Of a DNA stretch of 64,000 bases, positions 116 to 42,847 are shown piece after piece. The stretch lies in IMG/VR virus record IMGVR_UViG_3300045988_173968; one strand, written 5' to 3'. Made by a program: the position numbers and the translations under genes. This DNA is from a virus. The notes under the pieces were generated by a model. The model searched no databases. It saw only the letters and a program-made list of their open reading frames with translations, and was not told where the DNA came from. Every line of letters starts with the position of its first letter. The first letter of the stretch is position 1.

Positions 116-391
116 TTACACCCCCAATAGATTAAATAGTTCCTTTGAGAAATCCGGTATAGCGGGCTCAAAAAGATCGAGATACGAAATAAAATCACTC
201 CGGTTTAATTCTGAACCACATCTAATATCAAGTCGATTGCCATTTATTTTGTATACAGATTTGTAGCTATCCATATGCCATCCGTCGAAATTGATTCCCG
301 CATCTTTCATTGCTTCAAGTATTGCTTCTCTGTATATGCCTTGTGGACAGGTAATCCAGTTATTCCGCATCAAGTCAAGGTTTGCTTCCAT
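116..391 (-). CDS. small early protein, LDL(M/L)R family, degenerate shared C-terminal tail (..DFSKELFNLLGV)
   Basis: ORF track 91 aa. TAAATG junction with the upstream micro-ORF. N-terminus MEANLDLMR resembles the 1575 and 1905 paralogs. Confidence 0.6.
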   Translation of the reverse strand: MEANLDLMRNNWITCPQGIYREAILEAMKDAGINFDGWHMDSYKSVYKINGNRLDIRCGSELNRSDFISYLDLFEPAIPDFSKELFNLLGV

Positions 392-469
392 TTAAATCAA
401 CTCCCATTGTTGTTCTTCCGTTAATGGCCCACGAAAATAATGGCTCCTAAGCAAATAAATGTCCAACAC
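392..469 (-). CDS. micro-ORF, 25 aa (MLDIYLLRSHYFRGPLTEEQQWELI)
   Basis: GTG start 8 nt after a GGAGG. Stop abuts the next ATG. Shares the L-x-x-x-L..RGPL pattern with the 1-113 ORF. Below the ORF-track size cutoff. Confidence 0.25.
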   Translation of the reverse strand: MLDIYLLRSHYFRGPLTEEQQWELI

Positions 470-488
470 AATTAACTCCTCCTATTTA

Positions 489-766
489 TTGCAACCTGAG
501 ATATCTGTTCCAAGTTTGGATCGCCTCTTCGTCGTCTTAAGTTGGGCTTCTGGCCCAATTAAGTCGGATTTGACTTAAGTTTGACTAGCCGAGGTGTGAA
601 CTCCTGTACTGTTTATCGGACTTTGACCTAGTATATGACCTCGGGCAGCAAGCTGCCGGCTTCTCGCCTTCGCTAATCAGACTCCCTGGCGTCCTTCTTG
701 CCCTCACAATGCGTTACAGCCGGTTATACCGAGCTGCTTTAGCAGTCGCTAAAAATATCGTTGCAA
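489..766 (-). ncRNA. structured non-coding cassette A (candidate RT-associated ncRNA)
   Basis: 278 nt with no ORF. On the minus strand it starts TTGCAACGATATTTTT and ends GATATCTCAGGTTGCAA, and these ends are inverted repeats. Internal stems include CCGAGGT/ACCTCGG, TTAAGTC/GACTTAA, TTGGGC/GCCCAA and GGCAG/CTGCC. About 75 nt is homologous to cassette B2, including an identical GGTATAACCG. Confidence 0.4.
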
Positions 767-775
767 TTTTTTTAA

Positions 776-976
776 TTATTTATTTTCTGAGAAAAGCTCG
801 TCCACCGTGGAATCAAGAGCAGAAGCAATTTTCTGATAGTTCTCCAATCTGGAGCGAGTAAAGTTCTTTTCGATTTTGGAAACGGTAGCGGTACAGAGCC
901 CAACCTTGTCGGCAAGGTCTTTCATGCCGTAGCCTTTCTCCATGCGCTTCTTCATCATTTCATAATTGTGTTTCAT
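776..976 (-). CDS. XRE/Cro-CI family helix-turn-helix regulator
   Basis: GGAGG RBS 7 nt before ATG 976. Sequence MKDLADKVGLCTATVSKIEKN...ENYQKIASALDSTVDELF fits the HTH_XRE pattern. The ORF-track start at 1003 is less likely. Confidence 0.75.
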   Translation of the reverse strand: MKHNYEMMKKRMEKGYGMKDLADKVGLCTATVSKIEKNFTRSRLENYQKIASALDSTVDELFSENK

Positions 977-996
977 AGTTAATACCTCCTTAAATG

Positions 997-1025
997 TTGA
1001 CAAGTTAGCAAAAATATACTACTAT
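997..1025 (+). promoter_or_regulatory. near-consensus sigma-70-type promoter facing rightward
   Basis: TTGACA (997-1002), a 17-nt spacer, then TACTAT (1020-1025). No plus-strand gene lies downstream; a terminator hairpin follows about 35 nt later. Confidence 0.35.
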
Positions 1026-1060
1026 GGTCGTAGCACATTCTTTCTGTTTCATGGTGTGCC

Positions 1061-1090
1061 GCCGCCCTTCATGGGCGGCTCCTTTCTTTT
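1061..1090 (+). terminator. intrinsic terminator-like hairpin
   Basis: GCCGCCC-TTCAT-GGGCGGC followed by TCCTTTCTTTT on the plus strand. It overlaps the stop codon of the minus-strand gene 1089-1562. Confidence 0.4.
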
Positions 1091-1562
1091 ATTCGTCCTC
1101 TTCGGTGTAATCTACCCAATAGATAGGGAGATTGATCCAATCTTCCTCACCGTCTGCCTTAGCATAAAAGAAGCCGCCCTCGCCAGATTCTCTAACTGTG
1201 GCAACTTCTTCCTCGGTAGCTTCGCGCCAATTTCCTTCGCCAAACTCGGCATTAAGTTCATTCTCGAGACACTCTTCAGAACAATATGTAACGCAATCGT
1301 CTTCGTTGTAGTATCCCTCGTTAATTTTTTCTCCACAGCAAGCGCAGGTCGTCTTAAAAACTGGGATTGCCAGGAATGCGTCAATTTTCTTTATGGCTTT
1401 GTTCAAATCAACTCCAGTGCTCTTGATTTGAATTGTCTTACCATCTTCCGCAAGGTATGCTTCCATACCCTCGCCTATCTCATCGGCGGAATAAATAGTT
1501 TCTTTATCTTCCATACCATTGAGTTTAAGATCAATGATCAGTCTGAGTTTTCTTGAAAACAT
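1089..1562 (-). CDS. hypothetical protein with CxxC...CxxxC zinc-ribbon-like motif and acidic C-terminus
   Basis: ORF track 157 aa. GGAGG RBS upstream of the ATG. Motif CACCGEKI...YCSEEC. Confidence 0.6.
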   Translation of the reverse strand: MFSRKLRLIIDLKLNGMEDKETIYSADEIGEGMEAYLAEDGKTIQIKSTGVDLNKAIKKIDAFLAIPVFKTTCACCGEKINEGYYNEDDCVTYCSEECLENELNAEFGEGNWREATEEEVATVRESGEGGFFYAKADGEEDWINLPIYWVDYTEEDE

Positions 1563-1574
1563 TTCACATCCTCC

Positions 1575-1892
1575 TTAATTATCTAAAAGTGTTTGAAGCT
1601 CGTTTGAAAAATCATAGCCACCTGACGGATTTGACATTTCGATCAATTCCTCGATAGTGATAACTGGGTATGGCGAAAAAGTAATAAAAGTGCAAAACAT
1701 CTCAAGAAAGCCTCCGACTGCTTCTTTTATAAAATAACAATCGCCATCCCAACACATATAACATTGCAAAGATTTTTCGCCATCGTAAGCATCTACGGCA
1801 TGCTGCATTGTTGCCGCCCATTTGCCTATATCCCCGTGGAAGAACACCGCATATTCCTTGAGCAGATCCAGGTTAATATAGGGGTAATCCAT
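1575..1892 (-). CDS. small early protein, LDLL(K/R) family, degenerate shared tail (..YDFSNELQTLLDN)
   Basis: ORF track 105 aa. GGAGGG RBS. Paralog of 1905-2210 and 116-391, with N-terminus YINLDLLKEYA. Confidence 0.65.
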   Translation of the reverse strand: MDYPYINLDLLKEYAVFFHGDIGKWAATMQHAVDAYDGEKSLQCYMCWDGDCYFIKEAVGGFLEMFCTFITFSPYPVITIEELIEMSNPSGGYDFSNELQTLLDN

Positions 1893-1904
1893 ACCATTCC
1901 CTCC

Positions 1905-2210
1905 TTATATTCCAAGCAACGCTGCAAGCTGTTCGGAGAAATCTTCCTGCGGAGAAGACATCTCAACGAATTCGTCCCATGTTATTACTGGTCTGTCTTC
2001 TTCAAAATTACACAAGTTTCTGCATAACATCGTATTATGCACGATATAATACACCGCTTTATCACAATTCCATTTCATGCCGCAACTCAAGAGACCCGTA
2101 TAACAACGAACAGAGTATTTCATCGTATCGACCATGGTTCTACTCCAATGGTCAATCTTCAGAGCATATGTCCTCAACAAATCCAAATCAACATAAAGAT
2201 ATTCCGGCAT
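1905..2210 (-). CDS. small early protein, LDLLR family, degenerate shared tail (..EDFSEQLAALLGI)
   Basis: ORF track 101 aa. AGGGGG RBS. N-terminus YVDLDLLRTYA. Confidence 0.65.
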   Translation of the reverse strand: MPEYLYVDLDLLRTYALKIDHWSRTMVDTMKYSVRCYTGLLSCGMKWNCDKAVYYIVHNTMLCRNLCNFEEDRPVITWDEFVEMSSPQEDFSEQLAALLGI

Positions 2211-2212
2211 AC

Positions 2213-2455
2213 TTATACCCCCTGAATTCCAAGAATCACATATCCGTCTTTAACAAAATCCGGGTCGGACAACGCATAGCAGATACGCATTGTCACAGAC
2301 TTTCCGGTATATTCACCGTTATACTCTTTCAGAATCAGAATATCTCCCACACGGAAGTCTCTGTCGTACTTACGAACCTCAAAAGTCTTAACTCCGTTCA
2401 CTACATCTCTGTAGTACGGTGGCCAGATTTTTAATTCATGTATCTTCGGATTCAT
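2213..2455 (-). CDS. ASCH/DUF3850-like (PUA-fold) protein
   Basis: ATGA start/stop overlap with the upstream gene. IHELKIWPPYYRDVVNGVKTFEVRKYDRDFRVGDILILKEY matches my recollection of the ASCH-like pattern. The ORF-track N-terminal extension is discounted. Confidence 0.55.
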   Translation of the reverse strand: MNPKIHELKIWPPYYRDVVNGVKTFEVRKYDRDFRVGDILILKEYNGEYTGKSVTMRICYALSDPDFVKDGYVILGIQGV

Positions 2456-2721
2456 ACGGCTGCACCTCCTAACAGTGTCATAAGCTCTTCTTCGAAAGTG
2501 AAAGGCTCCTCTACTTGAACTTTTTCGAGGAATGCAGGAACAGCCCATTCGATTCTTTCCCTACCAGAGTTTTCATGAATACAGATGCGATACTCGCGGT
2601 CGCTGAAACCAATAACCTCAATAAACTCAACACAACTACTGCGCCGATATTTATCAAGTCTCCAGGGCAATCTTTGATGGTTTACGATTTGCACAACATC
2701 TCCAACTTGAAACTTTCTCAT
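2452..2721 (-). CDS. small protein with SH3/KOW-like N-terminus (KFQVGDVVQIV) and shared tail ..FTFEEELMTLLGG followed by AAV
   Basis: ORF track 89 aa. GGAGGGG RBS. Lies immediately downstream of the RT gene. Confidence 0.7.
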   Translation of the reverse strand: MRKFQVGDVVQIVNHQRLPWRLDKYRRSSCVEFIEVIGFSDREYRICIHENSGRERIEWAVPAFLEKVQVEEPFTFEEELMTLLGGAAV

Positions 2722-2733
2722 ATACTCCCCTCC

Positions 2734-3882
2734 TTACGCAGCAACATCGTCTGCCATCATCTTGATGACATCGCAATGATACTTTTTGTTGTACCAAGAG
2801 ATCACATAATCAAAATACTCAGGTTCCACATTGCTATAATAAGAAAGCTTGCCACGCAGAGTCATTACTTCTTCCGGCGGCCAGCCCTTACCATCTTTTC
2901 TTGCAACTATGTAGTTATTCAGCATTGCCTTGAACACCTTTTTATTCTCGTGTCCAACAGTGATTTTGTTGTCTTTGTTGATCATCAAACCAAGACACCA
3001 GTTTCGACCTGCTCTGCTGCCGTAATGTGTTTTTTCTTTCTTAATGGTGTATGGCGCATCGAACTTCTTAAATACATCGTTCATCATCTCGATGACGCCC
3101 ATGAACAAGAAACCTTTCTTGGAAGAAACCGTAGCATCATCGGCGTAACGAGTGTAGACAAAATCGTTAGTCTCGCTGGCTCTCAATCGTCGAGAGATTT
3201 CATGGTCGATGGGAATCATAATGACATTAGTAAGAAGCGGAGAAATCGGAGTTCCCTGCGGCAGTCCACCATCGAGGAAACAGAGAGAGATAGCATCTCG
3301 TAGCGCTTTCTCGCCATCCTCATATTTAACAACCTCGCAGAAAGGATAAATCACGGATAACATCCGCATTGTGAATTCCAGCGTAGTCGAACCAAAGAAA
3401 TTGCTCAAGTCCGTCTTGAGGTACCAATTACTGTTGTTTCTTTGATGTACTTTCAGCGCATCAGTAGTGCTTCTGCCCTTGATGTACGCAAAAGCAGCCG
3501 TATGATATAGAACCTTAAAATCATTCTCGAAGATTGCCTTGAGACTATACAGAGCTTGTTTCAGTTCGTCATCCGGCGCATCGATCTGACGCCAACCGCC
3601 GGATTTCTTTGGAATTTTGAAAGAATTATAATGTTCTCGCATGTTGTTCGCATCAAATTTCGGCTGGTAAGTACGATTAAAACTCTTCAGCTTCCCGATA
3701 AGATACGGTGCTCGCGCCATTTCTTTTAGCTCCTGGGGGAGCTTTTTGTATTCGTAGGTTCTTGTGGATGTCCCGAAGTCCACTCCGTTAATATACGGGC
3801 TGAGATTTTTCACACCAAAGAGAACATCCTCAAGGGTAAGTTGCTTCTTTGCTCTTGTCATAAATGTGGTTACATATGGCAT
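2734..3882 (-). CDS. reverse transcriptase, retron-like/DRT-like, RT domain only
   Basis: 382 aa. AAGGAG RBS. Motifs: RQIDAPDDELKQALYSL, AYIKGRSTTDALKVH, LKTDLSNFF, GLPQGTPISPLLTN, YTRYADDATVSS. No maturase or endonuclease domain was recognised. Confidence 0.9.
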   Translation of the reverse strand: MPYVTTFMTRAKKQLTLEDVLFGVKNLSPYINGVDFGTSTRTYEYKKLPQELKEMARAPYLIGKLKSFNRTYQPKFDANNMREHYNSFKIPKKSGGWRQIDAPDDELKQALYSLKAIFENDFKVLYHTAAFAYIKGRSTTDALKVHQRNNSNWYLKTDLSNFFGSTTLEFTMRMLSVIYPFCEVVKYEDGEKALRDAISLCFLDGGLPQGTPISPLLTNVIMIPIDHEISRRLRASETNDFVYTRYADDATVSSKKGFLFMGVIEMMNDVFKKFDAPYTIKKEKTHYGSRAGRNWCLGLMINKDNKITVGHENKKVFKAMLNNYIVARKDGKGWPPEEVMTLRGKLSYYSNVEPEYFDYVISWYNKKYHCDVIKMMADDVAA

Positions 3883-3908
3883 ATAAAAACTCCTTTCTTT
3901 TGTGTCGA

Positions 3909-4175
3909 TAAAACAGTCTAAAACACTTTCCTGATGACGCTGGAGGCGCCTGAAGACTCGCTGTTCTGCTAGTTACGGCTTCTAGTGACGGCGTTCTAGA
4001 TGAAATAAGGCCATCTTGAGTGCAGCTTTCTAATGGTTTGAACCATTATTTGCCAGAAAAGATGATTCGAGCTCGCCAGTCGCTCCTGGATCAGCTCCGG
4101 CGTGCCTCTTGTCTGTGACTATGCGTACCATTCGGTTATACCAAAATGCGCTCAATGAGCTATAACACTGTTTTA
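3909..4175 (-). ncRNA. structured non-coding cassette B2, immediately upstream of the RT gene (candidate cognate ncRNA)
   Basis: No ORF. A 9-nt terminal inverted repeat reads TAAAACAGT (5') and ACTGTTTTA (3') on the minus strand. Homologous to cassette A over about 75 nt. Occupies the position of msr-msd in retrons. Confidence 0.45.
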
Positions 4176-4178
4176 CTT

Positions 4179-4479
4179 TTGCAACCTGAGATGTGTGCGA
4201 TGATCAGCTACTGAGCTCTGGAGACCGGCTCCTCGAGTTTACTGCTGTATTATGTTTGTCTTTACCGTGCGTTGGTTTCTGGATAAGCGGTGGATGTTAG
4301 CAGTTTTGCTTTCGCAGTTAACCTATATCTGTCTTGGTTAACGATGATGTTCCACTTCACCTCGCCTACGCCAGGTACCTGCAGGCTTCCTTCGTGGTAT
4401 CCCGTTCCTTTTCGCTGGCAATTCAGTACATTCGCTTAAAACGAAATGCTTTGTTTTGAAAACAAAAATATCGTTGCAA
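4179..4479 (-). ncRNA. structured non-coding cassette B1
   Basis: 301 nt with no ORF. Its boundary sequences are identical to those of cassette A (TTGCAACGATATTTTT ... ATCTCAGGTTGCAA), but the interior is unrelated. Confidence 0.35.
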
Positions 4480-4488
4480 AAAAATCAT

Positions 4489-5172
4489 TTAATAGGTATC
4501 AATGGCAAAATTAAAAGCGTCCACCAGAATAATCTTCTTAAGGACACCTTTATTTACAAAGTTTACGAAGTTGGAAACCCCAAAAGAAACGATAGTCCAA
4601 ATCGTTCCCGCAACTGAAAGAGATACATTGCAGGCAGATACAGGAGTTGCCGCTCTTGCTTCCTCCTCGGTAAACTCCATAGAGCGAAGCAGATTGTCCT
4701 GCATCTTAGGATCAGACCAGTTGGCTGCGTAGTGTTGAGCATCAGTAAGCCGTGTCCGGAAATCAAAGACAGCTTTGATGTTCATGTTTGTTGCGTTTTC
4801 CTTGACGATTCTCCGCCGAAGCTCAATGCTATCTACGCAGAGGAAAACATAGCCGCTCAGACGCTGCTTGTCATATCCCTTATCGAAGATTTTCAGCTCT
4901 GAATCGATATCTGGATTGATTTTATGAAGCATTTCGGCAACCGCCGCAGTCTTGGGCTTGCCAATATCCTCAGTCGTAAACATCTGATTGGCAAGGTTAT
5001 GTGCCTCAACGACATCGAAGTCGTAAAGAGAAATGTTCGTCAGCCCCAATCGGGCCAAACAAACCGCCAAAGTAGAACCGACGCTGCCACAGCCGATAAT
5101 ATGGATGCGGGTCTTCGCACACTTGTCTGGATTAAAGAACTCGAAGCTCTTTGACAAATCCATCATCTGCAT
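4489..5172 (-). CDS. ThiF/MoeB/E1-like adenylyltransferase-fold protein
   Basis: 227 aa. GGAGG RBS. Rossmann motif IHIIGCGSVGS, DFDVVEAHNLANQ, GKPK, LCVDS. No catalytic-Cys domain is visible. Confidence 0.8.
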   Translation of the reverse strand: MQMMDLSKSFEFFNPDKCAKTRIHIIGCGSVGSTLAVCLARLGLTNISLYDFDVVEAHNLANQMFTTEDIGKPKTAAVAEMLHKINPDIDSELKIFDKGYDKQRLSGYVFLCVDSIELRRRIVKENATNMNIKAVFDFRTRLTDAQHYAANWSDPKMQDNLLRSMEFTEEEARAATPVSACNVSLSVAGTIWTIVSFGVSNFVNFVNKGVLKKIILVDAFNFAIDTY

Positions 5173-6058
5173 ATTCCTCCTCTAAGTCAATATCTTCGGT
5201 AATTCCACCGCCTATAACCTCAGCTTTTACCGAGTTTTTGGTTTTGGAATAATCCTCACTTTCGTTTTTTTTATCCTGTTTCTTACCGTAGTTGCCATAC
5301 GGATAATCATAGTCGTCCCAAAAATCTTCCCATCGACTACCGCATCCTCCGTAACCACCATATCCGTAGTCATATGTGCCACTCTTTTTAGAGCTATTGT
5401 AAGCACCTGTACCATGATAGGTATATGTCTTTGCCTTTACGAGTTTTTTGGACTCCTCCAGGAACTCACCGTTATCGAACTCAATAGAGACATCTATATC
5501 TCCATTCTCATAAAGCACATTGTTAGCGAGGTCGTAAATCTTAGCATTGTGCTCGTTCTTTTTATTCCAAATCACAAACACCCAAAATGTATCAGGTGAG
5601 CTATTCCCTACCCTGGTTGCCTGGTCAGTGAGATCAGTACCACTCGGGCTTGTCCCCATATTTACATGGCTGTGACCTTGGAAACGGATACGGTTGTAGT
5701 CCTCATCGGGGATTTTCTCGAGAAAAGCTCTGTGCTCATCCTCATCCGTGTCCACATTCACACCAGTAACGACTTGCGGGTACACAAAAACATCTGAGAT
5801 TTTGAAGCCGGCATCACCCACTCTGTCTACATATCCATACCATGCTACCTCAGAGTCAAAATTGTTGACCAAAGTAATCATCTTGGAATAGGCTTCGGGG
5901 GTGAAAATAATCTTCGCTTTACCCGTCTTCTCGCTTTTGAACTCCTTGGTGTATGTAAACTTGCCACCCTCGAAGCTCTTAGCGGATGAGATCTTCTCCG
6001 TGAATTCTCGAATCATTTCCGCAATTGTCTCTTTGGGAATGTTAATCATTTTAGCCAT
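5132..6058 (-). CDS. JAB/MPN (JAMM) metallopeptidase with Tyr/Gly-rich low-complexity C-terminal region
   Basis: 308 aa. EVAWYG ... HSHVNMGTSPSGTD gives E...HxHx7Sx2D. Overlaps the E1-like gene by 41 nt and the upstream gene by 8 nt. Confidence 0.8.
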   Translation of the reverse strand: MAKMINIPKETIAEMIREFTEKISSAKSFEGGKFTYTKEFKSEKTGKAKIIFTPEAYSKMITLVNNFDSEVAWYGYVDRVGDAGFKISDVFVYPQVVTGVNVDTDEDEHRAFLEKIPDEDYNRIRFQGHSHVNMGTSPSGTDLTDQATRVGNSSPDTFWVFVIWNKKNEHNAKIYDLANNVLYENGDIDVSIEFDNGEFLEESKKLVKAKTYTYHGTGAYNSSKKSGTYDYGYGGYGGCGSRWEDFWDDYDYPYGNYGKKQDKKNESEDYSKTKNSVKAEVIGGGITEDIDLEEEYADDGFVKELRVL

Positions 6059-7403
6059 TCTTCAACACCTCCATAGCTTCTTTCACGGTATGCACCGAAC
6101 CATCCTCGAACTCAATGAAACGCTCATTAGAAGAGCAGATCTTTTCAATGAAATTGGCGCCAACCGTCGAGTCATCAAAGTTGATATTGTGAGTAGAACC
6201 AATAGCCTGTTCAACTGCCCCAAGGTAATTTCTCTCACCCATCATACGATCAATGATTCGAGCATTACCACCCATGCAATGGAAACCGCAGAGATGAGGG
6301 TGAGGCAGATAAGTCTTGAGCTCTGCCAGATTTGTCTCTCTTTTATCTGGTCTCAAGGTACCAGCAACATCCAAGACAAAATGTGCCCAGGTGCGAATCT
6401 TGAATTTCGGATTCTCCCCAAAGACGCTATCCAAGAACAGCTTCATATCATTTTTGGACTTGATGTTCTTCCGCTCGCCATAGTTGCCATAAAAATAGCT
6501 GTATTCGTTATTGAGGCAACGCTCGAAGCTATCCTCATCAAAAGAGTCCAAATAACCCTTGACATAAAAGGAGATAAGCTCTTCGTCCGCATCTTCCAGG
6601 ATGAGATCCTTGCACCGGAGAAAGAACTTGAGAAATTCCCCTTCGTTGCCATCATTACGGCGAATTTTTTCTTCAAGAGCCGCAATTTGCAGGGTGTTAA
6701 AATGGTCTTTGTCGTAAAGGTCATCGAGCTGCCGAAGAAGATTCTCTATGTTGCTCTTAATTCTCGTGTATTCACTTTTCATTCGCTCCAACGAACTCTT
6801 CTCGAATTTCACATCAATGTCACTGAGAGCAGAGCGGATGAACATCTCACGCAGGTCAAGACGGTCATACAGTTTCTGAGATGAATCAGCAAACATATTT
6901 TCATCATTGCGAGAAATCGATTTCACGAGATCAAGCTCGTCGTTGTCGAGAGGCTTGCCCGCAAAGGTCGCAGGGAAGAGCTTCTGCACAATGCAAGCCA
7001 ACATACGACCAAATGACGAATCGAGCTTTTCGCTGTAGATGATGGAACGATTATTGTTTTCATCAATAAATGCCCAACCGACATCTTTTTGTTTGGAAAC
7101 GAAAAGACTTACCGGCTCATTCTGCTTGTAGCCAGCCGCAATAATGTCGGATTTATTCTCGCCAAGCCAAGACAAAGCGTTTTCACCGGAAATCAAATAG
7201 ACCGTGTTCCGCTCAGTTGGAATTGCATAATTGCTTTTTGCAATTTGGAGGTTGTATGTATTTTCCTTATCTCTGGGGTAGACCAGTGCTCTCAAGACAT
7301 GAGAATAACACTCCTCTCCGCCGATTGGTGTTACTGGGATATTGGTGCAAATCGTAGAAAACTTGTTGTCCGTAAATGTTGTGTTGCGAATACTTCGAAT
7401 CAT
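6051..7403 (-). CDS. hypothetical 450-aa protein, first gene of the JAB/E1 operon
   Basis: Long clean ORF, translationally coupled to the JAB gene. Has a central coiled-coil-like region and a C-terminal PHPHLCGFHCMGG motif. Function unknown. Confidence 0.7.
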   Translation of the reverse strand: MIRSIRNTTFTDNKFSTICTNIPVTPIGGEECYSHVLRALVYPRDKENTYNLQIAKSNYAIPTERNTVYLISGENALSWLGENKSDIIAAGYKQNEPVSLFVSKQKDVGWAFIDENNNRSIIYSEKLDSSFGRMLACIVQKLFPATFAGKPLDNDELDLVKSISRNDENMFADSSQKLYDRLDLREMFIRSALSDIDVKFEKSSLERMKSEYTRIKSNIENLLRQLDDLYDKDHFNTLQIAALEEKIRRNDGNEGEFLKFFLRCKDLILEDADEELISFYVKGYLDSFDEDSFERCLNNEYSYFYGNYGERKNIKSKNDMKLFLDSVFGENPKFKIRTWAHFVLDVAGTLRPDKRETNLAELKTYLPHPHLCGFHCMGGNARIIDRMMGERNYLGAVEQAIGSTHNINFDDSTVGANFIEKICSSNERFIEFEDGSVHTVKEAMEVLKNG

Positions 7404-7436
7404 TTTACATTTCTCCTTTATATTTTATTTTATGAA

Positions 7437-7512
7437 TGGAGCTGGCGGACGGACTTGAACCCCCGACCTGATGCTTACAAAACATCTGCTCTACCAACTG
7501 AGCTACGCCAGC
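7437..7512 (-). tRNA. tRNA-Thr (anticodon UGU), CCA encoded
   Basis: Hand-folded cloverleaf: GCTGGCG/CGCCAGC acceptor, GCTC/GAGC D stem, anticodon loop TTTGTAA, T arm GGGGG-TTCAAGT-CCGTC. Confidence 0.85.
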
Positions 7513-7531
7513 AATGGTAACTAATTTGTGA

Positions 7532-8053
7532 TTAGGTTCCTTTGCGTGAAAGACGGCACGCAACAAATAAACCAATTGACATCACTATGGTATCCATCAC
7601 CGCTGCGACCATATTTTTCGGAATCTTTACTGCAAGGGGGATAGAAAAGAGCAAGCATTCGACAGCTGTTTTAACAACGCCGACGCCAAGTAAAACTGCC
7701 ACACCGGTTATTGCAATGTTTGACCCACACAAACTATCATTTTTCTGGTAGGCTTTCCCACAAATGATCCCAATCAGAACATTGCCAAGCATCCAACCAA
7801 GTGGAAACCAACCCGAAGAAAGCAAGCTTACGACAGTACACCCCGCACCGCCTACAATCGCGCCGCCAAGCATCCCGAACCTCATACAGCAAACCGCAAG
7901 CACTATATACCCAAGGTCAAGCGAAATATGGCCAATGCCAATCGGTATTTTGAGCACCATACTTACGACAACATACAGTGCAATACAAAGTGCAATTTGG
8001 CATATCCACATAGTGTTTTTTCTTATAGAATTTTCTTTAGTTGGTTTATTCAT
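7532..8053 (-). CDS. polytopic membrane protein, ECF-transporter S-component-like
   Basis: 173 aa with 5-6 hydrophobic helices rich in small residues (GGAIVGGAG, GWMLGNVLIGIICG). The family call is from pattern memory only. Confidence 0.45.
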   Translation of the reverse strand: MNKPTKENSIRKNTMWICQIALCIALYVVVSMVLKIPIGIGHISLDLGYIVLAVCCMRFGMLGGAIVGGAGCTVVSLLSSGWFPLGWMLGNVLIGIICGKAYQKNDSLCGSNIAITGVAVLLGVGVVKTAVECLLFSIPLAVKIPKNMVAAVMDTIVMSIGLFVACRLSRKGT

Positions 8054-8399
8054 CAGTCGATTCTCCTTTCAACTTTTTACTGTCTACATATACCTCTATT
8101 GCCCTGTGATGCGCAAACTGCTCAAGAAGTTCGTCAAAAGATACACCATTCACTTTTGCGTCCACTTTCATTGCAGAAAATTGATCTTTATATTTCTTAA
8201 CCATGCTCTCTAAAGCGAGAAAATGTTCTTTGTCTTTCGGATAAAAAGCGATATCCTCAATGCAAACTTTGCTGATATCTTTTTCGTGGTAAATCGCTCT
8301 CAAACAATTTTTACATGGTTCATCCTCCGGCGATAATGAGAAGTTAATGCAATCACCGCAATAGACGGTAACTCCATTCACCTTAATTGGCTTTACCAT
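8046..8399 (-). CDS. hypothetical protein with CxxC...CxxC zinc ribbon
   Basis: 117 aa. AGGGGG RBS. Motif YCGDC...CKNC. Contains an internal VSFDELLEQF that resembles the shared tail. Confidence 0.6.
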   Translation of the reverse strand: MVKPIKVNGVTVYCGDCINFSLSPEDEPCKNCLRAIYHEKDISKVCIEDIAFYPKDKEHFLALESMVKKYKDQFSAMKVDAKVNGVSFDELLEQFAHHRAIEVYVDSKKLKGESTDE

Positions 8400-8423
8400 T
8401 AAAAATACCCCCTAAATTTTTAT

Positions 8424-8498
8424 TGGAGCTGAAGCCCAGACTTGAACTGGGAACCTGCGCTTTACGAGTGCGCCACTCTACCTTTGAGTTACTTCAGC
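8424..8498 (-). tRNA. tRNA-Thr (anticodon CGU), CCA encoded
   Basis: Hand-folded: acceptor GCTGAAG/CTTCAGC, anticodon loop CTCGTAA, T arm CCCAG-TTCAAGT-CTGGG. One A-A mismatch at the base of the anticodon stem. Confidence 0.75.
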
Positions 8499-8532
8499 AT
8501 ATTGCCCCTCCGAAGAGGGGCATGAGGTATTA

Positions 8533-8760
8533 TCAGGCGTTGGAGGTCTTCGCAATGCAGGACAGGCGGCAGGACTCAGTAATGCCGTAGGAGGCAAAGG
8601 ACTTGTCCATCTCACCGGCACGCAACGGAGTACCATCCAGCGCGGGGGTGGCGGTAGAATAATCTACATTGTTCTCATCGAGAACCTCTCGAATGGTCTT
8701 CTCAGCGTCTACGAGCAGAGTCTTACGATCCATGTTGTTAGTCAGAGTAATGCTTACCAT
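8533..8760 (-). CDS. 75-aa protein, possible ubiquitin-like beta-grasp fold (no C-terminal GG)
   Basis: AAGGAG RBS. Its size and the pattern MVSITL..KTLLVDAEKTIREVL...ALDGTPL...DKSFASYGI resemble small Ubl/ThiS-type proteins. This is inference only. Confidence 0.4.
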   Translation of the reverse strand: MVSITLTNNMDRKTLLVDAEKTIREVLDENNVDYSTATPALDGTPLRAGEMDKSFASYGITESCRLSCIAKTSNA

Positions 8761-8859
8761 AATTTTTTCTCCTTTGTTATGTAAATTTAATTTTTAGGGA
8801 CATAGTTGCGCCCCGCAGCGGTTAGCCACGGGGCTTGATTGTACTGTGCTGTTTACGGC

Positions 8860-9255
8860 TTACTGGACATCGATGGCAGCCTGAACGGAAGCAACCTCAG
8901 CCTCGATCTCGGTGAGAGTAGTACCAAGAGTCTCCTCCAGAGCATTCATCTTCAGGATGATGGCACCGAACTTGTCCTCAGCGTAGGTTTTAGCCTCGGC
9001 GGCAGACATACCGGTGGGGATCATCTCGGTGTAGGTCGCGTAGCCATTCTCGTCGTGAGAAGCGCTTACGAACACAACGCCATTCTTATTGGCGCTGGCA
9101 GTCTTAGTGCCAACATCAATGCTGAAAACGGGGTTCTTTTCTTTGTCGCGCAGAACCAGAGCATCGGGACGATACTTCTTAGTCTTACGCAGGGTCTCCA
9201 GCTTCAGGCCGGAAGTGAGTACGAGTGCGTCTCCATGGATAGTGATCTTAGTCAT
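8860..9255 (-). CDS. hypothetical 131-aa protein
   Basis: AAAGGAG RBS before ATG 9255 (MTKITIHGDALVL...). The ORF-track start at 9285 is less likely. Confidence 0.6.
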   Translation of the reverse strand: MTKITIHGDALVLTSGLKLETLRKTKKYRPDALVLRDKEKNPVFSIDVGTKTASANKNGVVFVSASHDENGYATYTEMIPTGMSAAEAKTYAEDKFGAIILKMNALEETLGTTLTEIEAEVASVQAAIDVQ

Positions 9256-9317
9256 AGTTTGACTCCTTTCGCCCATTTTGGGCATTAAAATTATTTATGT
9301 ATAACCCTGTCTGGGTT

Positions 9318-9605
9318 TTACAACGAAAGTATGTTCGAGAGCTGGTCAAAAAAATCTTCGTATGCAATTTCAGGCTCTATGCAGTCAACATAAAAACGGC
9401 GGTTGATTTCCTTCGCTCCAGGGATATCACAACTCCATAAGCCTTCAAGATTGTGATTATCGAACATGATCGAAACACAATTCGACTTACATACTTCAAC
9501 AACCTCACCAGCCTCTCCAATGAAATGACTTTCATCTAATCCGCTGTGTGGGTTTTTCTTAACAACAACCACTCTGTCGCCTACTTTGAATTTTGCCATT
9601 ATCAT
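9318..9605 (-). CDS. small protein with SH3/KOW-like N-terminus (KFKVGDRVVVV) and degenerate tail ..YEDFFDQLSNILSL
   Basis: ORF track 95 aa. ATGA-type coupling with the upstream gene. Confidence 0.65.
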   Translation of the reverse strand: MIMAKFKVGDRVVVVKKNPHSGLDESHFIGEAGEVVEVCKSNCVSIMFDNHNLEGLWSCDIPGAKEINRRFYVDCIEPEIAYEDFFDQLSNILSL

Positions 9606-9829
9606 TCACCTCCAAATAATTTTAGTAATTCTTTCTCGAATGTTGGTTGTTCTTCCTCTGGCAAAAGGATAAGTTCATCCTTTGCAATTTCGTCTGCGGT
9701 CGGCATATAACAGTCTGCAGAATATGCAAATGTCCCTTCACACCTATTCTTACACGCCAAGTAATCGCAATTGTCAGGGTTGGCTGTTTCATTCTGACGG
9801 AATAGACAAAATTCATAAAAACAGTCCAT
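9602..9829 (-). CDS. Cys-rich small protein with shared tail ..PTFEKELLKLFGG followed by E
   Basis: ORF track 75 aa. TAATG overlap with the upstream small membrane ORF. Confidence 0.65.
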   Translation of the reverse strand: MDCFYEFCLFRQNETANPDNCDYLACKNRCEGTFAYSADCYMPTADEIAKDELILLPEEEQPTFEKELLKLFGGE

Positions 9830-9963
9830 TACTCAAGCTCCTCTTTCATTTTTTCATACAATTCGCTAAACCGCTTGCTCCACTTCCTTAGCCCGAAGAA
9901 AAAGCATACGCCCAGCACAATCCACAGACCGCTGGCGATGTTTATTAATAGATTATCCATCAT
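9829..9963 (-). CDS. small single-pass membrane protein (44 aa)
   Basis: MMDNLLINIASGLWIVLGVCFFFGLRKWSKRF... Start overlaps the stop of 9960-10307 and its stop overlaps the next ATG. Below the ORF-track cutoff. Confidence 0.4.
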   Translation of the reverse strand: MMDNLLINIASGLWIVLGVCFFFGLRKWSKRFSELYEKMKEELE

Positions 9964-10307
9964 TCTACCTCCTGCATCCAAAATTTACGACGGCAATCAG
10001 AGCATATCCGGTTTGAACAATTTCCGTATCTATCCCGACAATCAGCAGAAATGAGTTTTGGGCATAGCATCAAGCGCCCACATTTGTCAATTTCCGCCTC
10101 TGGATACTGTTCAAGAAACACGCTCTGCCTCGTCTTGCGTGGATGTGCAGCAGACCATTCCTCGACTATAGCAATCTGATCCGTAGCGTCCAGCGTTGAT
10201 ATGGTGGAAACCCCACAACCACCATTAGAAGCTGGGCACCCAGTACATTTATCACCAAAACTCTCGCACATCCTGTTGCGTTCCTCAATAAATTTTACAA
10301 CATCCAT
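9960..10307 (-). CDS. Cys-rich hypothetical protein
   Basis: GGAGG RBS 8 nt before ATG 10307 (MDVVKFIEERNRMC...). Multiple CxxC/CxxxxC clusters. Confidence 0.6.
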   Translation of the reverse strand: MDVVKFIEERNRMCESFGDKCTGCPASNGGCGVSTISTLDATDQIAIVEEWSAAHPRKTRQSVFLEQYPEAEIDKCGRLMLCPKLISADCRDRYGNCSNRICSDCRRKFWMQEVE

Positions 10308-10445
10308 TGAATTTTCCTCCATTTGCACCCGTCGCACGCGCCATTATGTGCGTGTTTGTACTTCCCGCAGTATTGTCATAACTCGTTGATAAGCGCCTTG
10401 CGGTCTGACGCCAGCTACATTGAACTTTATCTCCCATAGAAAATT

Positions 10446-10751
10446 TCATTCGGTACTCCCTCCCAATAATTTAAGAAGTTCGTCCTCAAAGGATTCTATT
10501 GGAGCAACTAACCGGATCTCATTTTCAAGAACCCAGCGGCAATTAGGATTATAAGCGTCAAGCTCCCAAGTGGACTCATAGGCATCCTCGAATGAGATGC
10601 AAAATTTTGCATTCAATATTCCATTAACATTTTCCGGTTCATTGAAATTAACATCAATAACAGTTCCAACAGCGCCAATTAAATCGTCACACGCATAATC
10701 GTCGTATGCAATATTCTCAACAATTTCTACATTATCGCCTACTGAAAACAT
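10446..10751 (-). CDS. small protein with SH3/KOW-like N-terminus (FSVGDNVEIV) and shared tail ..ESFEDELLKLLGG followed by STE
   Basis: ORF track 101 aa. AAGGAGG RBS. Confidence 0.7.
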   Translation of the reverse strand: MFSVGDNVEIVENIAYDDYACDDLIGAVGTVIDVNFNEPENVNGILNAKFCISFEDAYESTWELDAYNPNCRWVLENEIRLVAPIESFEDELLKLLGGSTE

Positions 10752-10814
10752 CTTCTTACCTCCTTTTCAAAAGTGGGGTTCTTCCCAGTCATGCACCCCT
10801 CGACTGCTTATTTG

Positions 10815-10849
10815 AAAGGAAAGGAGAAACACCATGAACAAGATGGTGT
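10815..10849 (-). terminator. intrinsic terminator closing the tRNA/ncRNA array
   Basis: On the minus strand: ACACCAT-CTTGTTC-ATGGTGT followed by TTCTCCTTTCCTTTC. Confidence 0.5.
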
Positions 10850-10990
10850 TGGGGGAAGGCTTGGGATTTGAACCCAACAATGCCTTTCGGCAACCTTCCG
10901 TATAGAGGCGGCTGTTGCACGCTGCGCACACGCATCGAAACCGCTAATCAGGGACTGTGCAAGCACCATCCCTTGGAAGGCAAACCCTTT
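10850..10990 (-). ncRNA. structured RNA ending in a 50-nt tRNA-like minihelix (acceptor stem, T arm, CCA) but lacking D and anticodon arms
   Basis: 3' module at 10850-10899: GGAAGGT/GCCTTCC acceptor, TGCC-GAAA-GGCA hairpin, TTGGG-TTCAAAT-CCCAA T arm, then C-CCA. Upstream hairpins include GGGA..GTGC-TT-GCAC..TCCC. A second CCTTCC copy upstream can pair alternatively with GGAAGG. Confidence 0.4.
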
Positions 10991-11016
10991 GACGCAACAT
11001 TTAATTCTCACTTACT

Positions 11017-11103
11017 TGGCGGAGAGGATGGGATTCGAACCCATGGCTCTGACGAGTCACCGGTTTTCAAGACCGGCTCCTTAAACCGCTCGGACACCTC
11101 TCC
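11017..11103 (-). tRNA. tRNA-Ser (anticodon UGA), long variable arm, CCA encoded
   Basis: Acceptor GGAGAGG/CCTCTCC, anticodon arm CCGGT-CTTGAAA-ACCGG, T arm ATGGG-TTCGAAT-CCCAT. Confidence 0.85.
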
Positions 11104-11560
11104 AGGTCTAGCTGGTTTTCTTGTTTCTCTCAAACCAGCAAAGCATCTATCTACGCAAGTTCAAACCGTAGCCATTGGATGAACTTTTTCTCGACCCGCA
11201 GGGTTAGATGCTTTACCCCGCTTGAACATTTTCGCAGTCCCTAGCGCCTCACCACAAAGTCTTTACTCTGTGGAGAGGTCTGAGCGTTAGGCAAGCTGTG
11301 TACACTATTGGCCAATTTATGCCATGCAATTAGCACTCGCCCTGCGGAATCGTACCGCACCCTCATAAACCGTACAGTATTAAGAATGGCCATTCCTACC
11401 CTCGGTGGTTTATGATTCGAACCTCGCTTTGCTGTACTGATGTAGTAATACGACTCGTGCCATCCAGCAGTTCACACGAGAAGTGTGGGTTGAAGATTTT
11501 TAATCGACCTTTTAGCTAGCTCTCACTTCTTGGATTAGCGCGACCCACAAATTGATATTT
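11104..11560 (-). ncRNA. large (about 455 nt) non-coding, hairpin-rich RNA candidate embedded in the tRNA array
   Basis: No credible ORF on either strand. Bounded directly by tRNA-Ser and a tRNA-like gene on the same strand. Many local stems, for example GCGG-TACGATT-CCGC and GTGGGT...ACCCAC. Confidence 0.4.
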
Positions 11561-11629
11561 TGGTTTCGGGTGGACTTGAACCACCGACGCACTGGCTCCC
11601 AGCTGCTCTACCTCCTGAGCTACGAAACC
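11561..11629 (-). ncRNA. tRNA-like gene with truncated anticodon arm (5-bp stem closed by a 3-nt GAG loop)
   Basis: Normal acceptor (GGTTTCG/CGAAACC), D arm (GCTC-AGGAGGTA-GAGC) and T arm (GGTGG-TTCAAGT-CCACC). The anticodon arm is GCTGG-GAG-CCAGT. Total 69 nt, no CCA encoded. Confidence 0.55.
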
Positions 11630-11744
11630 ATATTTAATTGGACAGTCTTTCTGAATCTAGTGTGCGCATTGCGCCTTCATCTCTCTCCGCAACTGTCCGG
11701 GATGCGTCAAATCCATCCGCGTGGCTGTCCCGGGAACAGCTAAT

Positions 11745-11820
11745 TGGTACGCCATCAGGGATTCGAACCCCGAACTAGCCGGATATAAGCCGGATACTCT
11801 GACCGTTGAGTTAATGGCGC
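11745..11820 (-). tRNA. tRNA-Ile (anticodon UAU), CCA encoded
   Basis: Acceptor GCGCCAT/ATGGCGT, anticodon loop CTTATAT, T arm CGGGG-TTCGAAT-CCCTG. One mismatch at the 27-43 pair. Confidence 0.75.
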
Positions 11821-11846
11821 ATTTAAGCAGGCAAGCCTTGGCACCT

Positions 11847-12359
11847 CTAAACGAGGTGCCGCCTGTTGGTTCGATATGTATTGATTTCTTCTTGAAGCTC
11901 GTCCATGATGTCGGTAAGGATCTCCACATAGTTTTCATCTTGGCAGTAGCGATAAGCCACATCTTCAAGTTTCGAACCTGTGTACTTCCAGGAATCTGGA
12001 TTGTTGTATTCCAACAGCCCTTCCGCAATGAACCAGATACATTCTTCAACGGAGTCGAACGACCGGAAACTGCCATCATATTGACGCCAACCTCCGATGT
12101 TATTTTTCTCCTTGAAGTAGGTTGATGTTCCCCATCCGCTCTCCAATCCGAATTTTGCAAGTAAGTACAGCGGGTTTATTCCGTAATACTTCCCTGTTTC
12201 GAGGATTGTCCAAGCATATGGGGACAGCCCTTCTCGAAGATTTGTCAGTACATACTCGAATTCTTCCAATGTGTAGTCCGTTTCATCGGTAAAGACTTCG
12301 TACCCATACGCCGGAACTACTATCAGAAGCGCTAAGAGGATTGCAATGATTTTACGCAT
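11847..12359 (-). CDS. secreted GH73-type N-acetylglucosaminidase-like peptidoglycan hydrolase
   Basis: 170 aa. Signal peptide MRKIIAILLALLIVVPAYG. LAKFGLESGWGTS...NNIGGW matches the glucosaminidase pattern. It is the only gene here that ends at TAG (11847-11849); a TAA follows 7 codons later at 11823-11825. Confidence 0.65.
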   Translation of the reverse strand: MRKIIAILLALLIVVPAYGYEVFTDETDYTLEEFEYVLTNLREGLSPYAWTILETGKYYGINPLYLLAKFGLESGWGTSTYFKEKNNIGGWRQYDGSFRSFDSVEECIWFIAEGLLEYNNPDSWKYTGSKLEDVAYRYCQDENYVEILTDIMDELQEEINTYRTNRRHLV

Positions 12360-12391
12360 TTAATACCTCCTGAATTTTTGCCCTTGCGGGC

Positions 12392-12468
12392 TGGTCGGGA
12401 TGACAGGATTTGAACCTGCGACCTCGTACTCCCAAGGCACGCGCTCTACCAAGCTGAGCCACATCCCG
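12392..12468 (-). tRNA. tRNA-Pro (anticodon UGG), CCA encoded
   Basis: CGGGATG/CATCCCG acceptor, anticodon arm CGTGC-CTTGGGA-GTACG, T arm GCAGG-TTCAAAT-CCTGT. Confidence 0.85.
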
Positions 12469-12639
12469 ATAAAGAAAGAGCCTGCGGTTTTTCTACGCCA
12501 CAGGCTCTTCCACAGAAAGGGGGCGATGCACATCCCTGCATCTGGGGCTCTTTTTCCGGCTTGCATTTCGCAAGTCGCCTCTCGCACGAGCAGTGCTAAG
12601 GTTATCTCGAAAGGAGGTGCGGGGGAATGACGACCCCCG

Positions 12640-12726
12640 TGGTGCCGCTGGCGGGATTTGAACCCGCACGATGTTTCCATCGAGGGATTTTAAGTCCCTT
12701 TCGTCTGCCAATTCCGTCACAGCGGC
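12640..12726 (-). tRNA. tRNA-Leu (anticodon UAA), long variable arm, CCA encoded
   Basis: GCCGCTG/CAGCGGC acceptor, anticodon arm AGGGA-CTTAAAA-TCCCT, variable arm TCGATGGAAACATCGT, T arm GCGGG-TTCAAAT-CCCGC. Confidence 0.85.
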
Positions 12727-12729
12727 ATT

Positions 12730-13194
12730 TTAATCATCTCTTCTTGCGCACTTCCCATCAACAAAGTGATAATCTCCAGCATATGCACAATCAGCACAAT
12801 CGTTTGTCTCGTCACCGCCGAGAGGGCAAAGAAGATTCATAAGCTCATCCTCGAAATAGAATTTTTGTTTTAACTCCGGTCGATATTTCATAATGAAATC
12901 ATCAACAGGGATTACATACCATCCATCGTAAAGTTCAGTTTTCTGATAATATTCCAAGTAACAAAACGAACCCCACTTAAGGCTTCCATTTTGCATCACA
13001 AGGATAGCAACTGTATCACTGCTCATTCGACCGAATTGCTTCCCTATTGCCTCAATGTCACTCTTTGGGAAAACTCTGACTTCATGATCTTCAGACCAGT
13101 CATCTGGGCTCAAAACTCCGTCGAAGATTTCTACAAATTCCTCAACCGTAGTCTCTCGATTAAAGTAGACGAGGAGCTTCTTTTCAATTTCCAT
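12730..13194 (-). CDS. early protein with shared tail ..FYFEDELMNLLCPLGG followed by a 27-aa Cys-rich extension
   Basis: ORF track 154 aa. Paralog of the 13196 and 13560 genes. Post-GG peptide is DETNDCADCAYAGDYHFVDGKCARRDD. Confidence 0.7.
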   Translation of the reverse strand: MEIEKKLLVYFNRETTVEEFVEIFDGVLSPDDWSEDHEVRVFPKSDIEAIGKQFGRMSSDTVAILVMQNGSLKWGSFCYLEYYQKTELYDGWYVIPVDDFIMKYRPELKQKFYFEDELMNLLCPLGGDETNDCADCAYAGDYHFVDGKCARRDD

Positions 13195-13195
13195 T

Positions 13196-13558
13196 TCATC
13201 CTCCTATCAGTGCCATTAGTTCATCCTCAAAGATTATTGGTTCCCGTAGGTCGGGGCGAAAAACATCAATGAATTCATCGATAGTATAGACAGGCGCTCT
13301 TTCATAGCCGTGCTCCTTATACCAAGACAGAGAGCAATAACCTTCCCATTTGATGGGATCATCATCTGAAACAATAAGAGATATAGTATCATCCTCTCTT
13401 CCAGAATCAAGAATATTTCGAGCCACTACGGAATGTATATCGACTGCGAAGAACTTTTTCGTGCCATTTCTATCATAAACTTCTGACATCGCATCGAAGA
13501 ATTCCGATTCTGTCATCTGTCTATCGAAGTGAACGAGAATTAACCCAGTTTTATCCAT
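13196..13558 (-). CDS. early protein ending exactly in the shared tail ..PIIFEDELMALIGG
   Basis: ORF track 120 aa. Tandem paralog of its neighbours. Confidence 0.7.
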   Translation of the reverse strand: MDKTGLILVHFDRQMTESEFFDAMSEVYDRNGTKKFFAVDIHSVVARNILDSGREDDTISLIVSDDDPIKWEGYCSLSWYKEHGYERAPVYTIDEFIDVFRPDLREPIIFEDELMALIGG

Positions 13559-13559
13559 T

Positions 13560-13880
13560 TTACCCTCCTAATAGTTGCATCAGCTCGTCCTCGAATGGCT
13601 CAGACTCTTTAATGCCAAGAAGCTCAAGGAACTGATCAAGGTTGATTTCAGTGTAACCTGATATATAATGGCTTCCCTGTGGAGTATGATAAAATTCATA
13701 GTTGGCATATCCAAGACATTTGAAATTACCATTAAACCGAAGCCCTACGCCTCTTTTAAACTTTGCTACAACATAATCATTACTACTAAAGAGAGATCTG
13801 TCTATTTTTACACCAGCAAACATTATTTCGTCTATAAGGTTCTCGTCGAGAGCCTCGTGCAAGACCAAAAGATATTTCAT
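13560..13880 (-). CDS. early protein ending exactly in the shared tail ..EPFEDELMQLLGG
   Basis: GGAGGGG RBS before ATG 13880 (MKYLLVLHEAL...). ATGA overlap with the upstream ORF. Confidence 0.7.
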   Translation of the reverse strand: MKYLLVLHEALDENLIDEIMFAGVKIDRSLFSSNDYVVAKFKRGVGLRFNGNFKCLGYANYEFYHTPQGSHYISGYTEINLDQFLELLGIKESEPFEDELMQLLGG

Positions 13881-42832: not shown

Positions 42833-42847
42833 TAAGGAGTGGGTTTC

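Follow-up and report, generated by a model that had tools for sequence, protein, structure and literature searches.

Studies of phages and bacterial compartments have shown that short terminal peptides can guide unrelated proteins to one partner. For example, encapsulins load their cargo through C-terminal peptides, and phage T4 sends proteins to its capsid by a capsid-targeting sequence. The tails of T4 gp43, gp33 and gp55 bind the gp45 clamp, and those of T7 gp2.5 and gp4 bind DNA polymerase. In this study, we analysed a 64,000-nt stretch of viral DNA (IMG/VR record IMGVR_UViG_3300045988_173968; hereafter the window), in which nine minus-strand open reading frames (ORFs) between positions 116 and 13880 terminate in F-[ES]-x-[EDQ]-L-x-x-L-[LIF]. 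We believe that this tail may be a portable C-terminal docking helix for a common, co-evolving partner, either a host or a phage protein, and we give this reading about an even chance of being correct. A shared docking peptide for one hub was the fallback claim of the preliminary description of this DNA, and it is adopted here as the best explanation because the tail is portable, selected as a peptide and specific to its lineage. Like the encapsulin and T4 targeting peptides, it is a terminal peptide found on unrelated proteins, more conserved than their bodies and movable; unlike them, it has other sequences and sits on genes of an accessory rather than a structural arm, and their receptor (the shell or the prohead interior) is known. 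The acidic and hydrophobic tails of T4 and T7 also resemble one another at the C-termini of unrelated proteins that share one hub, but there two or three proteins of known function are concerned, whereas here about a dozen small orphans per genome bear tails that vary between lineages. The bacterial clamp motif QL[SD]LF is not matched by the tail described here.

The ten ORFs listed in the preliminary description, together with the C-termini quoted for them, were all located exactly as described. When the six-frame translation of the 64-kb window was searched with a strict regular expression, five ORFs and no other place matched, and a looser expression brought in the genes 12730, 116, 1575 and 1905 (genes are named by their first coordinate). 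A position-specific scoring matrix (PSSM) of nine columns gave nine matches of 21-30 bits across the window, and the runner-up scored 12.6 bits. Block shuffles gave 0.1 matches of at least 18 bits against the 9 observed, a comparison that is partly circular, since the matrix was trained on the same tails; the exclusive C-terminal position and the common strand are independent of the matrix. The tenth tail, that of 9318 (EDFFDQLSNILSL), reached only 7 bits. Its orthologs keep it as EDF[FY]DQL[SA]NILSL, and it is similar to the tail of 1905 (EDFSEQLAALLGI); on these two grounds we count 9318 as what is, to judge by its sequence, a divergent member of the set.

The tail-bearing genes all lie on the minus strand. 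The gene at 13560-13880 encodes a 106-aa protein whose tail, FEDELMQLLGG (13563-13595), has GG as the exact end of the protein. The 120-aa alpha/beta protein of 13196-13558 carries FEDELMALIGG at 13199-13231, and its 154-aa paralog (12730-13194) carries FEDELMNLLCPLGG at 12814-12855, followed by a Cys-rich extension of 27 aa. This extension (12730-12813; DETNDCADC...KC) may form a small zinc knuckle. In the relative L088, the helix that precedes the Cys-rich extension in the paralog of 12730 (2954-3382) is degenerate (YKLNAKKLLCPFGG), as would be expected if the tail must be terminal. Three SH3-like proteins of 101, 89 and 93 aa are encoded at 10446-10751 (FEDELLKLLGG at 10458-10490, then STE), 2452-2721 (FEEELMTLLGG at 2464-2496, then AAV) and 9318-9599, where the divergent tail occupies 9321-9359. 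The 75-aa Cys-rich protein of 9602-9829 has FEKELLKLFGG at 9608-9640, then a single E. The 101-aa 'LDLLR' protein of 1905-2210 (FSEQLAALLGI at 1908-1940) and its 105-aa paralog of 1575-1892 (FSNELQTLLDN at 1578-1610) are both followed by a Shine-Dalgarno sequence right after the stop codon. The 91-aa protein of 116-391 has FSKELFNLLGV at 119-151, and its paralogs bear strict tails. The start of an eleventh minus-strand gene lies at 113, and the window edge cuts this gene so that only its N-terminal part is included (1-113; MLNVDLMRVKPLRG...); its orthologs end in FESELMALLGG or FENELMVLLGG. One further tail, FEDDLLKLLGGDKNG, was found in relatives. Comparison of the tail proteins with Pfam, NCBIfam, PHROG and PADLOC gave no informative match.

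The preliminary description had assigned the bodies to at least four unrelated families, and comparison of the tail-less bodies by hhalign bore this out, giving at least five. The only links found were those of 13196 with 12730, of 116 with its two paralogs, of 1905 with 1575 and, weakly, of 10446 with 2452. The supposed paralog trio of 12730, 13196 and 13560 needs correction, as 13560 was not demonstrably paralogous to the other two. That the tail is a portable module holds good: the same peptide occurs on unrelated bodies, a natural chimera exists, and selection acts at the peptide level. In this chimera (L010, L088 and L093), the N-terminus is SH3-like, and the linker and tail are those of the Cys-rich 9602 type. 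In the window, a 54-aa ORF at 10285-10449 (MKFSMGDKVQCSW...) seems to be a damaged version of an SH3-like gene of 95 aa, which in relatives (L088 5773-6060) bears the 9602-type linker and tail. As far as the sequences can tell, this pair is direct evidence of tail shuffling or of a deletion fusion.

Between families, the nine helix codons are identical at 0.94 of second positions and at 0.40 of third positions, and 38 of the 95 pairs with the same residue use the same codon, approximately as random synonymous choice would give. Among orthologs, 13% of the tail columns vary compared with 32% of the body columns (Fisher p = 7e-5), and the tail is invariant in homologs of 13196 down to 66% identity. 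The scrambled synonymous sites and the lower variation of the tail indicate selection on the peptide. An element that acts as DNA or RNA was rejected on account of the scrambling, and so was gene conversion in the recent past. Thus, the same peptide sits on unrelated bodies and is under stronger selection than they are, as a docking peptide should be.

Related phages carry other tails. An alignment search with the JAB peptidase gene of the same arm yielded at least 163 IMG/VR contigs, and 80 loci were retrieved from these; the 75 related loci analysed here all bear the module of ubiquitin-like protein (Ubl), protein X, JAB and E1 that is described below. The FEDELM..GG tail was found in 0 of these 75 loci, their C-termini were not enriched when scored with the window PSSM, and the genomes that do have this tail are all close relatives. 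In 63 of the 75, at least three small ORFs within 10 kb of the JAB gene (median 8, up to 14) end in hydrophobic-x-S-L-L-stop, as do 532 of the 597 SH3-like ORFs in the whole set. This SLL-type C-terminus takes the forms C-x-C-x-S-L-L, C-[KR]-S-L-L and F-x-S-L-L and is near-invariant, and its Ser and Leu codons are scrambled. The expansion of SH3-like genes with SLL ends (L095 1928-15506; L100-L169, e.g., L111 7015-20188) reads W-T-D-[DE]-M-F-x(4-9)-[CF]-x-S-L-L, with the stop codon right after LL. The family matches phrog_7488, of unknown function, and the genomes with such arrays are gut phages of 50-150 kb, a large group. The remaining lineages have tails of the ELDxFFxxF type, the DIDxALSSLL type or other acidic-hydrophobic types. 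The SH3-like proteins of the window and the SLL-type family are homologs (hhalign probability 93.7% for 9318, and 84.7%), and yet the former bear the local tail. In ten loci that bear the module, no SLL-type tail lies within 10 kb, and in several of these an SH3-like gene is missing from that interval altogether. Within a genome, the tails are uniform, and between lineages they are different, which is the signature of a peptide that co-evolves with a partner; spread to unrelated bodies was demonstrable in the window lineage only.

We suppose the following arrangement. A Pro-rich and acidic linker would lead to a 9-residue acidic amphipathic helix, F-[ES]-x-[EDQ]-L-x-x-L-[LIF], by which about a dozen diverse small accessory modules would be tethered to one partner. 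Tail and partner would co-evolve, so that each lineage would have its own tail, FEDELMxLL in the window lineage, where the tail would also have been transferred to non-SH3 bodies. The Gly-Gly and the short extensions would lie outside the docking signal. In the AlphaFold2 (AF2) model of 13196, the alpha/beta body is confident, with a predicted local distance difference test (pLDDT) score of 72-88, and is followed by a linker and a terminal helix (residues 110-117) with a pLDDT of 57-67; a Foldseek search with this model found no PDB fold match at E < 2. Pro/acidic linkers of variable length lie upstream of the tails. Because of these linkers and the lower pLDDT of the tail in this single model, the tail may be tethered rather than packed. 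A MinD-like C-terminal membrane-targeting helix was ruled out, as the tail helix is acidic (PSSM score -1.3).

The alternative to tethering is an intramolecular or oligomerisation helix, which would pack on its own body or bundle the proteins with one another, and which would be inherited and shuffled by recombination and serve no common external partner. It gains from the fact that the tail is limited to a single SH3-like family in most lineages, and from a pre-tail element, h-T-x-D-E-F-h-E, which goes with the tail in several families. The string itself also occurs, internal and conserved, in a protein of quite another kind: all 58 matches of the strict tail pattern in GTDB genomes (L027-L084) are SecA, in which S-F-E-D-E-L-M-R-L-F-G-G is a conserved internal segment. 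A structural helix is nevertheless unlikely in our opinion, since one helix that packs on alpha/beta, SH3-like and Cys-rich bodies alike is hard to picture, and the tail has both lower AF2 confidence and higher conservation than the bodies.

The SecA matches came from Dojkabacteria, Saccharibacteria and two metagenome-assembled genomes of Clostridia (RRIDNQLRGRSGRQGDPG..[FY]..SFEDELMRLFGGE), and no prophage copy of the tail was among the 58. We ascribe the resemblance to chance or to convergence on an amphipathic helix and not to homology. Scans of IMG/VR with strict and loose DNA patterns returned the same lineage only, plus chance non-terminal matches, and a 30-aa C-terminal profile run against 1.84 billion representatives returned same-lineage families only, plus one spurious repeat protein. 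SecA also bears on the double-glycine leaders of class II bacteriocins, to which the tails had been likened. The spacing E(-8) L(-7) L/I(-4) G(-2) G(-1) is indeed identical, but since SecA carries the same string internally, both the string and the likeness are generic, and the spacing is that of any amphipathic helix capped by glycines. Such leaders differ from the tails in their N-terminal position and in their removal by C39 peptidase transporters. No C39 peptidase or ABC transporter domain was found among about 50 window proteins scanned, which are a part of all ORFs. A peptide after GG, as a leader with its cargo would need, is present in 12730 only, and three to four tails have no GG.

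The Gly-Gly ending was studied at the gene junctions. The glycine codons are GGA-GGN in 5/5 strict tails, whereas GGA has a share of 0.18 of Gly codons genome-wide, and the GGAGG formed in this way sits 3-9 nt upstream of the ATG of the next gene. For example, 13560 ends in GGA GGG TAA A ATG, which places GGAGG 5 nt upstream of the next start. The extensions AAV, E and STE (DKNG in relatives) correspond to the spacer from the Shine-Dalgarno sequence to the ATG, with stop and start overlapping as ATGA, and in three looser tails the Shine-Dalgarno sequence lies directly past the stop codon. The terminal residues vary (GG, GE, GV, EV, GI, GM, DN and SL). In sister lineages, the homologous junction reads LL-TGA-GGT or LL-TAA-GGAGG, and therefore a single base divides 'LL-stop' from 'LLGG...'. 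Read from these junctions, the GG and its short extensions are the GGAGG ribosome-binding site of the next gene translated in frame, an inherited junction. The preliminary description had seen in the extensions a signature of ubiquitin-like precursors; the Shine-Dalgarno sequence, the spacer and the next ATG explain them instead. In general, where genes are tightly coupled and GGAGG sites are strong, Gly-Gly plus a few residues at a C-terminus can be an artefact of translation signals that imitates a ubiquitin-like precursor. Two findings leave room for some role of GG as a peptide. It is common in this genome for the upstream gene to contain GGAGG at its end (15 junctions), and this GGAGG is in frame 0 in 5/5 strict tails versus 0/10 other embedded sites. 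In addition, 12730, in which GG is internal, is the only tail with GG codons (GGC GGT) free of a Shine-Dalgarno sequence. GG may thus also act at the peptide level, e.g., as a helix cap.

The close union of tail and junction raises the question of an element that acts in cis, that is, a nascent peptide for termination or translational coupling, or a C-degron. The tails always adjoin the Shine-Dalgarno sequence and start codon of the next gene, and the S-L-L-stop terminus of the sister lineages is near-invariant, as such an element would have it. We consider it very unlikely, because the distance from motif to stop codon varies in the window lineage (0, 1, 3, 4 or 30 residues), as do the terminal residues, which is unlike an arrest peptide or a C-degron, and because the tail is dissimilar to known arrest motifs.

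The model put first by the preliminary description was that the tails are ubiquitin-like GG handles on which the JAB peptidase acts by trimming and the ThiF-like E1 by adenylation or conjugation. Like ubiquitin-like precursors, some tails do end in GG plus 0-3 extra residues, with E1 and JAB genes nearby in the same arm and the catalytic residues of both enzymes conserved, and 12730 keeps its GG with codons that make no ribosome-binding site. In the cyclic oligonucleotide-based antiphage signalling system (CBASS), the E1-E2 enzyme Cap2 reportedly conjugates a non-Ubl protein through its C-terminus, and this may serve as a precedent. However, GG and extensions are accounted for by the junctions and the terminal residues are variable. 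Unlike ubiquitin-like precursors, including those of BilABCD and CBASS Cap2-Cap3, the bodies are not beta-grasp folds: 13196 is mixed alpha/beta, and the others are SH3-like or Cys-rich. The tail was also expected to co-occur with ThiF-like and JAB genes; 75 loci have homologous JAB, E1 and Ubl genes, and their tails end in SLL, FE, FI, EM, etc., none in FEDELM..GG. Moreover, the module has a Ubl of its own, with the C-terminus K-x-D-N-A plus 0-4 aa, and is self-contained. Neither the bodies nor the glycines nor the co-occurrence speak for E1 and JAB as processors of the tails, and we now hold this model to be extremely unlikely.

Some points also weigh against the docking helix that we prefer. 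Both the docking function and the single partner are inferred. Confidence in the tail helix comes from one modelled protein, 13196. The tail-bearing genomes are all close relatives and the wider set was gathered via the JAB gene, which limits their independence. Finally, GG is kept with the codons GGC GGT in 12730, although by our account it lies outside the docking signal.

The module occupies 2734-9285 of the window on the minus strand (L095 2692-8291; also L096-L169), in the gene order of a protein of about 131 aa (8860-9255), the 75-aa Ubl, X, JAB, E1 and a reverse transcriptase. The Ubl gene (8533-8760) encodes a ubiquitin-like beta-grasp protein with the C-terminus K-T-S-N-A; its AF2 model has a pLDDT of 88.9 and matched ubiquitin and SUMO in Foldseek with a probability of 1.0 and template modelling (TM) scores of 0.55-0.71. 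In 74 loci, the C-terminus of the family is K-x-D-N-A, to which 0-4 variable residues are added (none, R, LAA, TGMN, VVM, GQ or TSK). By its sequence, this is a genuine Ubl-precursor pattern, a property of the Ubl and not of the tails, and the 75-aa Ubl is likely the true substrate of E1 and JAB. Protein X (6051-7403, 450 aa) holds the E2 position of the module and has a conserved P369-H370...C376; it matched no family, E2 families included. The JAB/JAMM peptidase (5132-6058) has E70, H129-x-H131, S139 and D142, and the 227-aa ThiF-type E1 (4489-5172) has GxGxxG, D51/D53, K74, D114 and a conserved C181. A tail on the JAB protein itself (...EEEYADDGFVKELRVL, FVKELRVL; 5132-5172) was rejected: its score is 12.5 bits, the first codons of E1 lie in the same stretch, and the JAB of L095 lacks it. 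The retron-like reverse transcriptase (2734-3882) always follows E1, and its NCBIfam match to the retron St85 type (184 bits) is below the cutoff of that model. The gap of about 600 nt between E1 and the reverse transcriptase (3883-4488) is non-coding and may be a template or non-coding RNA region; it had no Rfam match and contains one weak inverted repeat only (4050-4065 / 4406-4421). Between Ubl and X, the window and some relatives have a gene for the S component of an energy-coupling factor (ECF) transporter and a 117-aa ORF (7532-8399). Both are missing in L001 and L091, where Ubl adjoins X, and they thus form a variable insertion in the module. A 'MTREEF' protein of 155-190 aa is sometimes present in the module between JAB and E1.

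Across the loci, X measures 413-535 aa and E1 223-243 aa, the latter with a single ThiF domain and the conserved Cys. The JAMM residues, the nucleotide-binding residues and Cys181 of E1, and the P-H...C pair of X are conserved. X is the most divergent member, with 21% identity versus 41-49% for Ubl and E1. The same module is present in MT835544, a distant relative found by tblastn with E1 (49% identical). No informative match was obtained for X, Ubl or the 131-aa protein in Pfam, NCBIfam, PHROG or PADLOC, and no description of the module was found in literature searches. The order Ubl / X / JAB / E1 and the beta-grasp Ubl are like those of BilA-D (PMC10557695). In BilABCD, E1 has a tandem IAD-AAD and a CYS domain, and the Ubl has a conserved Gly near its C-terminus (PMC10557695, PMC11601596). 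In contrast, the E1 of the present module is single-domain (not IAD-AAD-CYS), its Ubl has no conserved Gly and ends in K-x-D-N-A, and X, in spite of its conserved P-H...C, matches no E2 family. The module is apparently a ubiquitin-like system, carried by phages and not described before, to which a retron-like reverse transcriptase is coupled.

The neighbourhood of tails and module permits a special case of docking that resembles F-box and SOCS-box receptors, in which the tail of each lineage would plug a quickly diversifying set of small, interchangeable binding modules (SH3-like and others) into the phage Ubl machinery (X, E1 or JAB) as substrate receptors or preferred targets. As in those receptors, a single short helical motif recurs on many diversified binding modules, here beside a Ubl-conjugation module; there is, however, no sequence similarity, and docking to the phage machinery is our conjecture. 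The arrays flank the module in 63 of the 75 distant loci, where JAB identity goes down to 36%. The divergence of X would fit a receptor that co-evolves with the tails, X retains its invariant P-H...C, and in Bil systems the E2 has been proposed to recognise targets (PMC10557695). The ten loci that have the module and lack a nearby SLL-type tail do not fit, and the link between array and module was seen one way only, as all loci were picked through the JAB gene. We therefore regard this special case as a distinctly improbable one. If it were true, the phages would be able to tag host proteins, e.g., defence proteins, by a modular system that can be retargeted.

The minus-strand (leftward) arm consists of dense small genes with seven tRNAs, the retron-like reverse transcriptase, the ThiF-like E1 and the JAB peptidase. 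The rightward arm codes for structural proteins, among them tail proteins, and for an integrase and pieces of a YonO-like RNA polymerase. By this gene content, the window is a large temperate phage. The right arm encodes a YonO-like RNA polymerase fragment (PF05183; 24410-25288), a protein with an Mtd_N domain, as in the tropism determinant of diversity-generating retroelements (42839-44113), and an ALK/LTK glycine-rich-domain protein (48489-50027), and relatives contain YonV_C, DUF3846 and LPD28 domains. From these domains, the phage has affinities to SPbeta-like and polyvalent-protein phages. The tRNAs are scattered among the tail-bearing genes (7437-12726) and comprise two for Thr, one each for Ser, Ile, Pro and Leu, and a seventh at 11561-11629 seen by Rfam only; the Rfam scan found tRNAs only. 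Comparison of the arm with cultured phages by megablast gave no match. MT835544, the only relative from a cultured collection, is of human-faecal origin, and this origin, the strong GGAGG sites and the ECF and glucosaminidase genes suggest a host among gut Bacillota.

The adjacent module deserves attention independently of the tails: the C-terminus of its Ubl is Asp-Asn-Ala in place of Gly-Gly, and a retron-like reverse transcriptase always accompanies the module. Should the tail prove to be a docking peptide, one hub would serve a dozen orphan accessory proteins in each genome and, across related gut phages, hundreds of proteins. The tail could then be used as a ready-made affinity or targeting tag, and once the hub is identified, a sizeable part of phage dark matter would become accessible to functional study.

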